From: Candidatus Micrarchaeota archaeon | GTDB lineage: Archaea > B1Sed10-29 > CAYVZL01 | Assembly (NCBI GenBank): GCA_964456465.1 | Contig: CAYVZL010000001.1 | Span: 1 to 35,558, forward strand | Reading direction: 5' to 3' | Length of the DNA: 35,558 nt | Shown: one piece after another, positions 13,029 through 32,565 of the stretch | How the letters are laid out: each line of letters starts with the position of its first letter | How positions within the stretch are numbered: position 1 is the stretch's first letter | Notes under the pieces: generated by a model | Seen by the model: the letters and a program-made list of their open reading frames with translations, nothing else | Databases searched by the model: none | Told to the model about the DNA's origin: nothing | Translations under genes and position numbers: made by a program

Positions 13029-13131
13029 CGGGCCTGACGCGATTTGAACGCGTGACTCCTGGATTAAAAGTCCAGTACTCTTGATTATTTACGATAGACC
13101 GTAAATATCTACCAGACTGAGTTACAGGCCC
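13029..13131 (-). tRNA. tRNA-Lys(UUU) with 29-nt non-canonical intron at the D-loop/D-stem junction
   Basis: Minus strand: GGGCCTG/TA/ACTC-AGTCTGGTA-[gatatttacggtctatcgtaaataatcaa]-GAGT/A/CTGGA-CTTTTAA-TCCAG/GAGTC/ACGCG-TTCAAAT-CGCGT/CAGGCCC/G. The insert (13081-13109) contains an 8-bp hairpin, TATTTACG/CGTAAATA. Confidence 0.75.
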
Positions 13132-28836: not shown

Positions 28837-29163
28837 TCATAATTTCTGCATTCTGATGCCTTTCACTGGCTTCGGTTGCTCCAGGGCTGTCTCACCAAAC
28901 TCTATCTTGTCTTTGATCAGGTCTCGGAGCTTAGCCTTGCCTGCCATGGAAACCATCTCCTGGCCCAGCTTGACGCTCCTTCCGGCGAGCAGGTCTTTCT
29001 CTATCAGCTTGAATGCGAGGCCGGCTTCTATCAGATTGGCCACCTCTGCTGAAAAATTGATCCTTTTTCCCTCTTTCTCTGGTGTCGACATGTACTCTTC
29101 AAGCCGGTCTATCAGGGCTTTCTCGAATGCTATCGATTTGGTGAATACGAGGCTTTTCTTCAT
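28837..29163 (-). CDS. Hypothetical protein (108 aa; N-terminus resembles a ribbon-helix-helix strand-helix)
   Basis: Clean ORF with no family recognised. KSLVFTKSIAFEKALIDRLEEY has the alternating pattern of RHH proteins, which is weak evidence. Confidence 0.35.
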   Translation of the reverse strand: MKKSLVFTKSIAFEKALIDRLEEYMSTPEKEGKRINFSAEVANLIEAGLAFKLIEKDLLAGRSVKLGQEMVSMAGKAKLRDLIKDKIEFGETALEQPKPVKGIRMQKL

Positions 29164-29284
29164 GAAATCACCGGTAGGACAAGGGATTTCTCCTATTTAA
29201 ACCTTATTGTTAATGATATTGTTGTTATTATTATCAATATTTACTGGAGAGAAACGAATAAAAGGCCCGGAAACAGCAAGAAAT

Positions 29285-29348
29285 AGTGGATGATGATACC
29301 TTTAAGTTCTGATGCGGCTGAATGAAGAATGATAGGCAGTCTGACACT
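29285..29348 (+). ncRNA. Candidate C/D box sRNA (2'-O-methylation guide)
   Basis: C box ATGATGA (29290-29296), 12-nt guide, D' CTGA (29309-29312), C' ATGAAGA (29322-29328), 12-nt guide, D CTGA (29341-29344). 4-bp terminal stem AGTG/CACT. Intergenic. Confidence 0.55.
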
Positions 29349-29554
29349 TAAAATTTAGGGGACTTTTTCTTTTTCTCTTCGTTCTCTTTTCTCCTTTCCT
29401 CCGCCCTTTGTTGTAATTTTTCATTGAGTTCTCTCGCCGCAAGTACGCGCGTCCTTTCTTGATCTGATAAAGAACTTAACTTTACTACTCGATCGTTCTT
29501 CCAGACCCGCTCTTCTGGATTTTGCAATAGCTTTCTCTTCCATGGCCAAGGCAT
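29348..29554 (-). CDS. Hypothetical small charged protein (68 aa)
   Basis: ORF only, with a K/E/R-rich helical C-terminus. No family recognised. Confidence 0.3.
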   Translation of the reverse strand: MPWPWKRKLLQNPEERVWKNDRVVKLSSLSDQERTRVLAARELNEKLQQRAEERRKENEEKKKKSPKF

Positions 29555-29603
29555 AATCGCACCTCAGATATAGTTATAGGCGCAGGCTTTTAAATAAGCT
29601 TAC

Positions 29604-29611
29604 TTAAAAAT
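29604..29611 (+). promoter_or_regulatory. TATA box (TTAAAAAT) for the initiator tRNA
   Basis: Ends 24 nt upstream of tRNA position +1 (29636). Confidence 0.4.
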
Positions 29612-29635
29612 TCTAATACTAGTTGTCTTGTTCAA

Positions 29636-29732
29636 AGCGAGGTAGGGCAGCCTGGAGTGCCCGTCGAAGATCCTAAAGATCTGCGGATGGCTCATAACCC
29701 GAAGGTCGTCGGTTCAAATCCGACCCTCGCTA
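29636..29732 (+). tRNA. Initiator tRNA-Met(CAU) with 22-nt non-canonical intron in the 5' strand of the anticodon stem
   Basis: AGCGAGG/TA/GGGC-AGCCTGGAGT-GCCC/G/TCG[aagatcctaaagatctgcggat]GG-CTCATAA-CCCGA/AGGTC/GTCGG-TTCAAAT-CCGAC/CCTCGCT/A. A1:U72 and three G:C pairs closing the anticodon loop are archaeal initiator hallmarks. Confidence 0.75.
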
Positions 29733-30017
29733 TTTAAAACTATAGAACTTCTTCTCAAAGTTAACTATCTTGCCTTGTTTGACTAAAACTCCTTCTTTCT
29801 TCAGTATCGCGATTTTCTTGGGCACGTTCCCATCGAAGCCGCCGATAGAACCGTCAGACATAACGACGCGGTGGCAGGGCACTCTCGGAGCATATGGATT
29901 GACATTCATCAGCTTTCCAACCGCTCTCTGATGATGGCCACTAGCTCTGCCAAGCTCTTTGTAGGTAGTCACGCGACCTTTAGGCACTTTCATCAAAATC
30001 TTGTAAATCTCTTTCAT
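29730..30017 (-). CDS. ogt: Methylated-DNA-protein-cysteine methyltransferase, stand-alone C-terminal (active-site) domain
   Basis: HTH-like TYKELGRASG, active site VPCHRVV. Only 95 aa, with no N-terminal Ada/Ogt domain. Confidence 0.8.
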   Translation of the reverse strand: MKEIYKILMKVPKGRVTTYKELGRASGHHQRAVGKLMNVNPYAPRVPCHRVVMSDGSIGGFDGNVPKKIAILKKEGVLVKQGKIVNFEKKFYSFK

Positions 30018-30652
30018 AACGCCCTCAAAAAATCTATAGCTTTGTCTGCGTCCGGCTTGAATGGAAAGGACTGAAAAAATGATTTGAACTCTGCGGAATA
30101 GTTCATGAAATTCTCCAATAGACCGCGCTCTTTTTCAGAGAAATTAAGCCGATATAATTCGATTTTCATCTTATCGCGTTCCGATTCGCATGAGTAGAGA
30201 AAATTCAGCATAGCCCAGAAAAAATTATCAATCTTCTTGTCTTTAATCATTGGATAAAATAAGGTAATCAAATCCAAATTGATGTCTTTTAGGACCGGCA
30301 GCTTGTAGATGTGCGGGGTGTGCTGGAGGTAAAGGAAGTTTATTTGGTACAGCGATGAGACTTTTCTGGGCGCAGTTAAATTGTGGTTCTTAAAAAAATG
30401 TTTCATGAGCTGGCGCGTTGACTTCCAAGTTTGATCCGCTCTGGAGTATTCAACAAGTATGTTTTTTGCAACAAGTTCTTCGAGATGGTTTTGCTTCAAG
30501 AACCTTACGACAAGATCCGGCCTGGATTTCGGATAAAAATCTTTCACTTCTTTTTTGAGAAAATGTACGAGTTCGGTGGGTGTTCTAGGAATCGGAAACC
30601 GGCAAAATTCGATGATTTTCTGGTTAGCTTCGAATTCGTTATAGTTTACCAT
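30014..30652 (-). CDS. Hypothetical protein (212 aa), translationally coupled to the MGMT domain gene
   Basis: ATGA overlap with the downstream MGMT gene. Phe/Asn/Lys-rich, lower GC. No motif recognised. Confidence 0.45.
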   Translation of the reverse strand: MVNYNEFEANQKIIEFCRFPIPRTPTELVHFLKKEVKDFYPKSRPDLVVRFLKQNHLEELVAKNILVEYSRADQTWKSTRQLMKHFFKNHNLTAPRKVSSLYQINFLYLQHTPHIYKLPVLKDINLDLITLFYPMIKDKKIDNFFWAMLNFLYSCESERDKMKIELYRLNFSEKERGLLENFMNYSAEFKSFFQSFPFKPDADKAIDFLRAL

Positions 30653-30856
30653 GACAACACTAAAGAATATATGTGTTAAGTAGAATATAATAATAGCTGG
30701 TTTCTATCTATGGTTAGACCCCATTGTTCGTGTATTCAAATAATAATGAAAATACGTTTATATATAATGAAATGTTTTTGCACTAATATAATAAATATAA
30801 TACTCTTTTAATAATTAATAAAACATCCAAAAGGAAAAAGAAAGGGAAAAAACGAG

Positions 30857-31189
30857 TTATCTCCTCTTCGCTAGAGAGTGCAAAGCGCCCTTTCTCGGAG
30901 CTTCTTCCATTTCAGCTTCTATTTCTTCTTCCTGGACAGCTCCGCCGCGCCTGCTTACTAGTAAAATGTCCTTCGCTGATCTAACGTTCTTATATAAAAC
31001 ACTCTTATCCCTAAGGACCTTCGCGGCCTCTTCTCTACTGGCCACCTTCAGGGTCTCTGTAGTCAGCCTTACAATTTCACCCTTCTCCAAATTGAGGATA
31101 ACATCATTTACCTTACCAATGTATCCTGCTTCATCGGTATAAATATCCATGCCGTATAATTTCGATAGTCGCATCGTCATTTTATTCAC
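30857..31189 (-). CDS. PRC-barrel domain protein
   Basis: LYGMDIYTDEAGYIGKVNDVILNLEKGEIVRL is the typical PRC-barrel core. Acidic/basic tail. Confidence 0.65.
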   Translation of the reverse strand: MNKMTMRLSKLYGMDIYTDEAGYIGKVNDVILNLEKGEIVRLTTETLKVASREEAAKVLRDKSVLYKNVRSAKDILLVSRRGGAVQEEEIEAEMEEAPRKGALHSLAKRR

Positions 31190-31290
31190 CCACCGTTGTT
31201 CGTGTCAGAATAAGGAAATACCTATTTAAAAACCTTTCGTTTCATCGATTTTACTCCCGACATATCGTCCATATACGTCGATTTTCGATA

Positions 31291-31309
31291 AATCGACGAG
31301 TCGACACAT
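31291..31309 (+). repeat. 19-nt direct repeat copy 1 (AATCGACGAGTCGACACAT)
   Basis: Perfect 19-mer also present at 31912-31930. Similarity extends to ~28 nt (TTTTCGATAAATCG...). Confidence 0.85.
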
Positions 31310-31369
31310 CAGAAAACCAAGAAAAACTAGAGAGCTAGCCAATGAATACAAGAAGTGGCGGGTGTCCGT

Positions 31370-31867
31370 CTAGGGGCCCATCTCTTGAGTGAATTTTGCA
31401 GAGGGGCCCGGGTTGAACCTATAGTAGACCTCGCGCCCCACGCGGTGCTTTTCAACATAATTTGCACGATACAGGGCGTTCAGAATCTCAGAGCACCGGT
31501 TCAGACTAAGTCCGGTTATCGTGGCGCTATCATCTGCCAGGATTTCGCCCTTTTCTTTGACTACATCTAGCACTTGTTTGAGTCTTGGCGATAGTATCGA
31601 TGAATCTGTCGATGCGTCGCGATGAATCGTCGATGTGTCTCGACTCATCCGACTCCTGGACTCTTTCGCGAGCTCGACCATCCAATCAAGCATATCCTCA
31701 TAGAGCTTCTTAATCTCTAGCAGCTCGTCAAGTTTGTGATCCATGCTGTCCAGCTTCTCTTCAGATTTTAGAGAGACGTGGCTTATCTGTACTGGTTTTT
31801 CCTCCTTTCTTTCTGGCTTCTTTTCCTTCTGGATGAGCGCCTGCCTGAGTTTTCCAAAGATGCCCAT
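31370..31867 (-). CDS. wHTH transcriptional regulator-like protein (165 aa)
   Basis: C-terminal LKQVLDVVKEKGEILADDSATITGLSLNRCSEILNALYRANYVEKHRVGREVYYRF has an ArsR/MarR-type winged-helix pattern. The N-terminal half is charged and helical. Confidence 0.55.
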   Translation of the reverse strand: MGIFGKLRQALIQKEKKPERKEEKPVQISHVSLKSEEKLDSMDHKLDELLEIKKLYEDMLDWMVELAKESRSRMSRDTSTIHRDASTDSSILSPRLKQVLDVVKEKGEILADDSATITGLSLNRCSEILNALYRANYVEKHRVGREVYYRFNPGPSAKFTQEMGP

Positions 31868-31911
31868 AGTGTCTATAGTAAATCAGAACCCATTTTTATA
31901 CTTTTCGGATG

Positions 31912-31930
31912 AATCGACGAGTCGACACAT
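31912..31930 (+). repeat. 19-nt direct repeat copy 2 (AATCGACGAGTCGACACAT)
   Basis: Identical to 31291-31309. The two copies bracket the wHTH gene. Confidence 0.85.
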
Positions 31931-32082
31931 TCCCGATAGATTGACGCAGCATGGCGATTTCATGAACCGATTAAAAATTCCAGGAAAAACTGAATTTTTG
32001 GCTTTCACAATCAGAAATTTTTCAATCACTCCTTAAAAAGTAAAATTATTGCACAAAAATATAGAAAAATTCCCAAAATCGG

Positions 32083-32399
32083 ATCTCTCACATTTCTTAC
32101 TCCCTCACCAATCATAACATACTAACTGGACACCAACCAACCGGCCCAAACTCCTGCTTTTTATCAATCTCTCACATTTTTAACCACGCTCAGAAGCCGC
32201 TCTATCCATAATAGCTGGGTTTTAGCTAAGACAATAACCCACCCCATAAGATCTCTCACAAGCAGTGCGGCTGAGCATGCTGATTCCATCGCTGTTCCAC
32301 GTGCGCCGCTTCAAACTAACCTTTACTCACCACGCTTTTTCAGTTTCAATCATTTTTGCACTATTCAGCCGGCTCAAATTTCTCAGTTTCCTCACATTT
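32083..32399 (+). repeat. Phased array of ATCTCTCACATTT-type motifs in a long non-coding region
   Basis: ATCTCTCACATTT at 32083 and 32167, ATCTCTCACA at 32251 (spacing exactly 84 and 84 bp). TTTCCTCACATTT at 32387 (136 bp further). No ORF of 60 aa or more on either strand. Confidence 0.7.
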
Positions 32400-32565
32400 T
32401 TACCCCCCTACTTGTAAAGAGTATCTTATATTATTTGGTTAATACTTCGTTATTAGTATGATTAATCAATTACTATCTATATTATATAATTTATCCTATA
32501 ACTGTCAACCACAAGGTTTAAATAGTTAAAATGATTTGTAATAAAAAAAGGATATAGGTGAAACG

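Follow-up and report, generated by a model that had tools for sequence, protein, structure and literature searches.

Archaeal origins of replication are organized as replicator-initiator pairs, and at least one of them, Sulfolobus oriC3, dispenses with origin recognition boxes (ORBs) and is served by a winged-helix initiator, WhiP (PMC4010727). The mapped origin of Haloferax volcanii lies at a local maximum of cumulative GC skew at third codon positions and in non-coding DNA, according to a 2026 study in which archaeal skews are argued not to follow the bacterial rule (PMC12999951). In the literature, the sole DPANN case that we found was a skew-based origin prediction for Forterrea (PMC5905446); for Micrarchaeota, whose genomes are among the smallest cellular genomes, we found no report in which an origin or a terminus had been mapped. 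According to the abstract of a further study, archaea have no known fork trap (PMC3020120). Here we describe an intergenic element from a Micrarchaeota archaeon, located in a stretch of 35,558 nucleotides (the window) that constitutes contig C1 of a 478-kb assembly comprising 36 contigs and estimated to be 77% complete. The element occupies the gap at 31868-32565, which separates two divergently transcribed winged-helix genes, and carries an array of short boxes that all read in one direction. We tentatively propose that this gap is a chromosomal replicator, or origin, with iteron-like boxes.

Within the gap, ATCTCTCACA starts at 32083, 32167 and 32251, at intervals of 84 and 84 bp, and the variant TTTCCTCACATTT starts at 32387; an earlier note on this DNA, made without database searches, had given these positions and spacings exactly. 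The 13-mer ATCTCTCACATTT occurs twice in the 478-kb assembly, both times inside the gap, and CTCACATTT occurs three times in the whole assembly, all of them inside the gap as well. When the gap was shuffled, any 10-mer appeared at least three times in 4 of 2000 shuffles. Intergenic copies of CTCTCAC, meaning those free of open reading frames (ORFs), number five in the assembly, with three inside the array and a fourth 2.4 kb away. The sequences between boxes are unrelated to one another, as the note had held: the 84-nt units outside the motif share 20-30% identity, compared with 28 ± 5% for shuffles, and Tandem Repeats Finder detected no array in the gap. Its description of the plus strand as G-poor was borne out by the composition of the core (32083-32410: C108, T98, A84, G38), including 5 G in 32083-32166. 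The AT-rich stretch that it had placed at 32410-32560 measures 22% GC, although this tract discriminates only weakly, because other intergenic regions of the assembly are likewise AT-rich. Finally, the region that had been described as 635 bp free of ORFs is so from 32037 to 32525, which is the longest stretch lacking an ORF of at least 60 amino acids in the entire assembly, but not at its left end, which is overlapped by a spurious 97-amino acid ORF (31743-32036).

The gene to the right of the gap encodes a 114-amino acid winged helix-turn-helix (wHTH) protein, and contigs carrying relatives of this protein at 69-85% identity keep both the gene order and a gene-free gap of ~690-750 bp. The order that is kept runs from a gene for an MGMT domain through a 212-amino acid gene, a PRC barrel gene, the 165-amino acid gene, the gap, the wHTH gene, a GNAT gene and an AF_0843-like gene to a 119-amino acid gene. 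Every good genome carries the 114-amino acid wHTH gene, 8 of 8 in the order and 11 of 11 in the class. In most loci examined, a gene-free region of ~400-1040 bp with a G-poor plus strand lies upstream of it; estimates of the gap based on ORFs are shorter in the GC-rich genome G023 and in G019. In the 240-kb contigs of two relatives (G011:C1 and G004:C1) the gap is again the longest ORF-free stretch, and the array is the only cluster of at least three CTCTCAC copies per kb.

Alignments show conserved boxes separated by DNA that has diverged freely. In the close clade, boxes 1 and 2 are both well preserved, and TCTCTCACATT (window positions 32168-32178, in box 2) is invariant in alignment A1, which contains six sequences from about four lineages; CTCACATTTTT of the box nearest the wHTH gene (hereafter the anchor box) hardly varies. 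Conservation extends to two TTGCAC blocks and to the promoter-proximal AT-rich tract, and TTTGCA(C/A) occupies the position of the ATTTTTGCAC block in about 10 of 19 aligned order-level loci. The unit shared by 24 representative loci reads (g)AT-CTCTCAC-(A/T)TTTT and is present in 1-9 copies per locus. Of 18 diverse gaps, 16 contain CTCTCAC, where 0.8 would be expected, and its orientation is that of the gene itself, with CTCAC occurring 143 times and GTGAG 6 times in the gaps of the 24 loci. Throughout the order, as in G023 and G018, the anchor copy lies at approximately -175 relative to the start codon; in G019 it is at -200 and in G022 at -162. A spacing of 84 bp, with boxes at -482, -398 and -314, is limited to the close relatives of the window; elsewhere the spacings are 115/178, 248, 49/40/29/78 and others, ranging from 28 to 248 bp. 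The proposal that the sites share one face of the helix does not apply in general: the 84-bp phasing is specific to the window's clade, and because spacings differ among relatives, helical phasing is at best weak (Rayleigh p ~0.04 for a period of 10.5 bp and 0.002 for one of 11 bp, from loci that are not independent).

A search for the motif genome-wide and in related contigs, which the earlier note had advised, thus found it confined to this neighbourhood and conserved over the class. Since synteny and gap are likewise conserved across this archaeal class, the gap is not part of a mobile element, and the suggestion of an integrated or ancestral element was abandoned. The DNA of the gap itself gave no match in the genomes of 40 relatives, because it is too diverged. 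A pattern scan of viral contigs returned two matches, which are probably due to chance; blastn of window positions 29000-35558 against both contigs found nothing.

We analysed strand composition in long contigs of relatives, with the wHTH gene set on the plus strand, and separated effects of the coding strand from those of the chromosomal strand by comparing GC skew between genes of the plus and of the minus strand, separately for the two flanks of the locus. The motif coincides with a switch in strand composition in four relatives. On the array side, plus-strand genes are G-richer than minus-strand genes by +0.27, +0.38, +0.09 and +0.14 (G006, G011, G004 and G023, respectively), and on the wHTH side the difference is reversed (-0.19, -0.14, -0.13 and -0.16). 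GC skews at four-fold sites are concordant in all three order-level genomes; AT skews are concordant in 22-kb windows and weaker or reversed in wider windows. Fits of a single change point put the switch at distances of 0.4, 2.5, 4.3 and 2.8 kb, measured from the gap or the wHTH start, and account for 18-51% of the gene-to-gene variance. Without correction, cumulative GC skew peaks near the locus in 4 of 4 genomes at codon position 3 (within 0.3-5.7 kb) and at codon position 2 (within 1.0-3.6 kb), and in 3 of 4 in non-coding DNA (within 0.8-2.7 kb; the exception is G004, where the curve just falls at the locus), and shows no peak there at codon position 1 in the four genomes. This pattern matches that of the mapped H. 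volcanii origin (PMC12999951). G023 is from a different order and has a GC content of 56%, so that the switch is not a mere consequence of shared synteny. In addition, synteny with the window's assembly and with G003 indicates that contig C1 of G006 joins C2 on the array side, such that the switch in this genome separates whole replichores.

Two further features of these contigs were recorded. A segment of ~40 kb in G011:C1 (35-75 kb) has a strand-composition polarity inverted relative to its surroundings and is probably a recent inversion. In G006, a candidate for the opposite switch was located at C1:16.9-17.5 kb, near the rRNA operon; it was rejected as an origin, having no convincing origin features and no synteny with G011.

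The position of orc1/cdc6 and the orientation of genes provide additional context. In six genomes of two orders, orc1/cdc6 is located 16-40 kb from the locus, on the wHTH side, and in 14 pooled contigs genes point away from the locus to ~25 kb on the array side and ~5-20 kb on the wHTH side. Co-orientation of genes is not decisive on polarity, because only 40-61% of genes per contig are co-directional. An origin beside orc1 itself was considered and rejected: the orc1 gene of the window's assembly (C7:13560-14762) has an upstream spacer of only 82 bp and lacks any large gap beside it, and in relatives the skew does not switch at orc1. Separately, eight contigs (G006:C2, G011:C1, G004:C1, G001:C8, G008:C8, G012:C8, G003:C2 and the window) end 22-49 kb from the locus on its array side, and these recurrent assembly breaks suggest a repeated or hard-to-assemble element there.

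Together, these observations appear to favour an origin. By analogy, the long gap, repeated boxes, AT-rich tract and flanking winged-helix genes correspond to the replicator-initiator layout of archaeal origins; in other families, moreover, the left flanking gene encodes an AAA+/lid/winged-helix protein whose fold resembles Orc1 or RuvB. The gap would act in cis, as a protein-bound element at a replication boundary of the chromosome (most likely the origin), and its CTCTCAC(A)+T-run boxes, which run in one direction, would be bound by a sequence-specific winged-helix protein. Candidates for the binder include the 114-amino acid wHTH protein, the variable left neighbour (a coiled-coil wHTH protein or an AAA+/winged-helix protein) and Orc1/Cdc6, and the duplex might open in the adjoining 150-bp AT-rich tract. 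We infer that a protein binds the boxes and which one it is, that the duplex unwinds in the AT-rich tract, and that the boundary is an origin rather than a terminus. The origin is the best supported of the readings considered because the motif is conserved, unidirectional and locally confined, and because the composition switch coincides with it in four relatives; the earlier note's proposal of iteron- or ORB-like sites beside an unwinding element is accordingly kept, without its integrated element and without general phasing. We rank a terminus or fork barrier well behind it on account of the linkage to orc1, the local divergence of genes, the replicator-initiator layout and the unreliability of the skew rule, the sign of the skew being unable to separate an origin from a terminus in archaea.

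Several observations weigh against an origin at this locus. No orc1/cdc6 gene adjoins it, its boxes are unidirectional, unlike the inverted ORB pairs of known archaeal origins, and their spacing and number vary widely. Skew analysis, which the earlier note had suggested in cumulative form, gave a switch in four relatives; in the window itself, in G019 and in G003 a switch was absent or weak, in G001 and G022 it was weak or partial, and the three order-level genomes that show it share synteny and hence are not independent observations. Under the bacterial rule, in which the leading strand is rich in G and T, the switch has the polarity of a terminus. At larger distances, the spc operon of ribosomal-protein genes, 80-100 kb away, is oriented toward the locus in 3 of 3 genomes, as are 80-90% of the far genes on the wHTH side. 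Lastly, the window's clade has further boxes, resembling operators, at fixed distances upstream of neighbouring genes.

These further boxes lie beyond the start of the wHTH gene. Between 0.3 and 2.8 kb from that start, loci of the window's clade contain 19 inverted and 0 direct copies of CTCTCAC, some of them within coding sequence and two (window 34174 and 34921) linked to promoters and conserved, and all 22 loci scanned contain 20 inverted and 2 direct copies, compared with ~3 expected per strand. The extra inverted boxes could be operators of a local regulon or, equally, outlying sites for an initiator or the opposed arm of a fork trap. In family f6, and in this family only, the promoter-proximal box is a perfect palindrome, CTCACGTGAG, at about -169 in L061 and -222 in L062.

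Such sites lend themselves to an explanation that we consider unlikely overall, namely that the gap is a local array of operators or upstream sites for a winged-helix regulator, probably the 114-amino acid protein, which would control its own promoter and a few neighbouring ones, with the coincidence at a replication boundary being incidental or inherited through synteny. A MarR/ArsR-like fold, an anchor box at a fixed -175 from the wHTH start codon, the f6 palindrome, which is typical of dimeric regulators, and the boxes in gene sense at the 119-amino acid gene and the zinc-ribbon leader of the window's clade (conserved in L004, L018 and L030) all fit this explanation. Sites 125-700 nt upstream of a TATA box would, however, be unusual for an archaeal regulator, and an operator array does not account for a gap that in several genomes is longer than any other non-coding stretch, for a strand poor in G over 300-1000 bp, for unidirectional boxes in 1-9 copies or for the skew switch in four genomes of two orders. 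A replication terminus with a polar fork barrier, which appears to us improbable, would account for the orientation of the boxes through a bound protein that arrests one of the two forks. The binder would be the adjacent core winged-helix protein, in a functional analogue of the bacterial Tus-Ter or RTP-Ter systems with the terminator gene next to its sites; the tus and rtp genes each adjoin a Ter site. By the canonical rule forks would converge at the locus, since the G/T-rich (leading) strand is the top one on the array side and the bottom one beyond it, on the wHTH side. The orientation of the spc operon and of the far wHTH-side genes agrees with this, as do the coherent picture in G006, with its opposite switch near the rRNA operon at C1:17 kb, and the oppositely oriented boxes that lie, in the window's clade only, 1.3-2.8 kb beyond the wHTH gene. 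Moreover, the DPANN archaeon Forterrea was oriented by the standard rule, with its origin beside cdc6 (PMC5905446). On the other hand, skew polarity is unreliable in archaea, the flanking and nearby genes diverge from the locus rather than converge on it, orc1 is found only 16-40 kb away, neither RTP nor Tus is in the top 50 structural matches of the wHTH model, and a fork trap would be without known precedent in archaea (PMC3020120).

Three remaining explanations are less probable still. A minus-strand non-coding RNA had been raised in the earlier note, and as a structured RNA it gained no support: searches of Rfam with the whole window at the gathering threshold and with the gap at E values up to 10 returned only tRNAs and noise, and folding of the gap revealed no excess structure relative to shuffles on either strand (z +0.42 and +0.62). 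We retain as a rival, though a very unlikely one, an unstructured, purine-rich RNA of ~350 nt that would start near the anchor box and bind a protein or RNA through its GUGAGAG repeats. The strand asymmetry extends over the whole gap, a conserved TTATAT(T/A) ~30 nt from the anchor box has the geometry of a minus-strand TATA box, and conserved minus-strand T-runs near 32045-32075 could terminate the transcript; nevertheless, the sequence between boxes is not conserved, and the skew switch would be left unexplained. Marginally less probable again is a centromere-like partition site or chromosome-organizing site, bound by a small winged-helix protein that spreads from it. Bacterial parS sites cluster near origins, and here a cluster of repeats is confined to one neighbourhood beside a small wHTH gene whose product has AspA (4rs8) and Sso10a-2 among its structural matches. 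These matches are generic for winged-helix proteins, however, and no gene for a ParA/SegA-type ATPase is adjacent. That the gap is the remnant of a protein-coding gene, or holds a functionless repeat that arose by chance, is hardly credible. Although three boxes share one minus-strand frame (VRD, 28 codons apart), there are stops in all six frames, no gene was called in the gap of any relative, and the enrichment is far above chance; the boxes alone are conserved and no frame is, and the decayed gene envisaged in the earlier note was therefore rejected.

Other assignments were dropped on similar grounds. An H/ACA-like reading, based on ACA followed by a T-run, was discarded, as relatives have CTCTCACT, which lacks ACA, and the strand is too G-poor for hairpins. 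Clustered regularly interspaced short palindromic repeats (CRISPR) have repeats of 24-37 nt and a regular period of 60-75 nt; a CRISPR array was rejected here given a repeat core of 7-13 nt, an 84-nt period found in one clade only and the empty Tandem Repeats Finder result. Models of ribonuclease P (RNase P) RNA and signal recognition particle (SRP) RNA had no match in the window's assembly, which is 77% complete, so by these models the gap is neither RNA. In the relative G006, RNase P RNA was located at 7059-7309 of L101 (G006:C1), directly downstream of 23S rRNA on the same strand. The window contains intron-containing tRNAs. ARAGORN identifies 29636-29732 as tRNA-Leu(taa), for which Rfam makes no call at the gathering score, and a marginal Rfam tRNA at 13029-13101 (29.1 bits) was missed by ARAGORN.

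We also examined the proteins encoded on either side of the gap. The structural model of the 114-amino acid wHTH protein, compared against PDB with Foldseek, is of the generic MarR/ArsR type and ends in a long helix. Its matches include Sso10a-2 and AspA (4rs8), which binds the centromere of pNOB8; RTP, Tus and Rep are absent from the top 50, and WhiP from the top matches. No homology of the 114- or 165-amino acid protein to WhiP/Cdt1 was detected, and exact-sequence look-ups of both proteins returned no record. A large protein collection contains 54 relatives of the 114-amino acid protein, whose gene is followed by one for a GNAT acetyltransferase. In other families (L039, L041, L042 and L046) the place of the 165-amino acid gene is taken by a lineage-specific protein of 390-440 amino acids, built from an AAA+ domain, a lid and, at its C-terminus, a winged helix, with only 13 relatives in that collection. 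The fold of this neighbour matched RuvB and Orc1/Cdc6 equally well, which does not single it out as a bona fide Orc1. A proposed homology between the 165-amino acid protein and the C-terminus of the AAA+/winged-helix protein was non-significant (E 0.19 and 0.008, probability at most 5%).

The coordinates of these features are collected in the table. They include a 28-nt direct repeat, of which one copy immediately precedes the TATA-like box of the PRC-barrel gene and the other that of the 165-amino acid wHTH gene, both genes being on the minus strand. The core of this repeat is conserved in relatives (alignment A1), and L015 has ~10 copies of TACTCGG/CGAGTA at this place. The repeat is probably the operator of a second regulator, separate from the CTCTCAC array.

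Table. Positions of the array, its flanking genes and associated elements in the 35,558-nucleotide window (SD, Shine-Dalgarno sequence).
Feature	Position	Strand	Remarks
28-nt direct repeat TTTTCGATAAATCGACGAGTCGACACAT	31903-31930 (+) and 31282-31309		copies 89% identical
Left gene, 165-aa coiled-coil + C-terminal wHTH	31370-31867	-	weak Pfam matches DUF7343/TFIIE_alpha; orthologues in relatives
Whole intergenic gap	31868-32565	.	between divergent winged-helix genes; gap of ~400-1040 bp kept in relatives
Near-invariant block GTAAAATTATTGCACAAAAAT	32040-32060	+	~40 nt upstream of box 1; from alignment
Box 1 ATCTCTCACATTT	32083-32095	+	conserved in relatives
Box 2 ATCTCTCACATTT, then TT	32167-32179	+	conserved in relatives
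Box 3 ATCTCTCACA	32251-32260	+	without T-run; less conserved
Conserved degenerate box CTCACCACGC	32325-32335	+	from alignment
Conserved block ATTTTTGCAC	32350-32362	+	~40 nt upstream of anchor box
Anchor box TTTCCTCACATTTTTACCCCCC	32387-32408	+	~-175 from wHTH start codon
AT-rich tract, 22% GC	32410-32560	.	candidate unwinding element; contains wHTH promoter
Conserved TTATATT	32426-32433		inside AT-rich tract
wHTH promoter TATA TTTAAATA	32517-32524	+	inside AT-rich tract
wHTH SD AGGTGA	32556-32561	+	inside AT-rich tract
Right gene, 114-aa MarR/ArsR-like winged-helix, long C-terminal helix	32566-32910	+	class core gene; candidate box binder
Inverted CTCTCAC copy	34072-34079	-	inside zinc-ribbon coding sequence
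Extra ACTCTCACAC box	34174-34183	-	leader of minus-strand zinc-ribbon operon; conserved in L018
Extra CCTCTCACC box, inverted	34915-34927	-	233-234 nt upstream of 119-aa gene (34329-34688); distance conserved in L004 and L018

The locus thus offers a candidate element for the whole class, defined by the longest non-coding stretch, a simple oriented motif, a core winged-helix neighbour and a switch in strand composition. Were it a terminus, it would provide the first case of site-specific termination in archaea, where free collision of forks is assumed, and in either case the direction of the skew at the locus bears on the meaning of nucleotide skews in archaea. The Tus-Ter system of E. coli and the RTP-Ter system of B. 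subtilis resemble it in having oriented, non-palindromic sites with the gene for a small DNA-binding protein beside the site, and in a strand-composition switch which, by the bacterial rule, has terminus polarity. They differ in that no homology to Tus or RTP is present here, the main array has a single orientation, the nearby genes diverge and no such system is known in archaea.

The iteron plasmids pSC101, R6K, RK2 and P1 share with the locus at least three direct repeats that run the same way beside an AT-rich region, together with a neighbouring winged-helix gene; in one family of loci here there is also an inverted pair of half-sites near the promoter of the winged-helix gene. Plasmid iterons are 17-22 bp long and closely and regularly spaced, however, whereas the boxes here have a 7-bp core at distances of 28 to 248 bp, the wHTH model has no specific Rep-like match, and the element is chromosomal and core. 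Archaeal oriC regions with ORBs (Pyrococcus, Sulfolobus oriC1 and oriC2, haloarchaeal oriC1) likewise combine a long intergenic region, repeated short boxes and an AT-rich tract with divergent flanking genes and a strand-composition switch, the last seen here in four relatives. In those regions orc1/cdc6 adjoins the origin, rather than lying 16-40 kb away, and ORBs form inverted pairs around the unwinding element, unlike the present boxes, which consist of a 7-bp core with a T-run and stand in one orientation, at variable spacing, on one side of the AT-rich tract. Closer in this respect is Sulfolobus oriC3, which has neither ORBs nor mini-ORBs and is adjacent to the gene for a winged-helix protein other than Orc1 (PMC4010727), although the 114- and 165-amino acid proteins have no detected WhiP/Cdt1 homology and would be initiators by inference. 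An origin with neither an adjacent orc1/cdc6 nor inverted ORBs raises the question of which protein recognizes the array; if the proposal is correct, the locus would represent an archaeal chromosomal replicator located away from orc1/cdc6, in which iteron-like boxes replace inverted ORBs.

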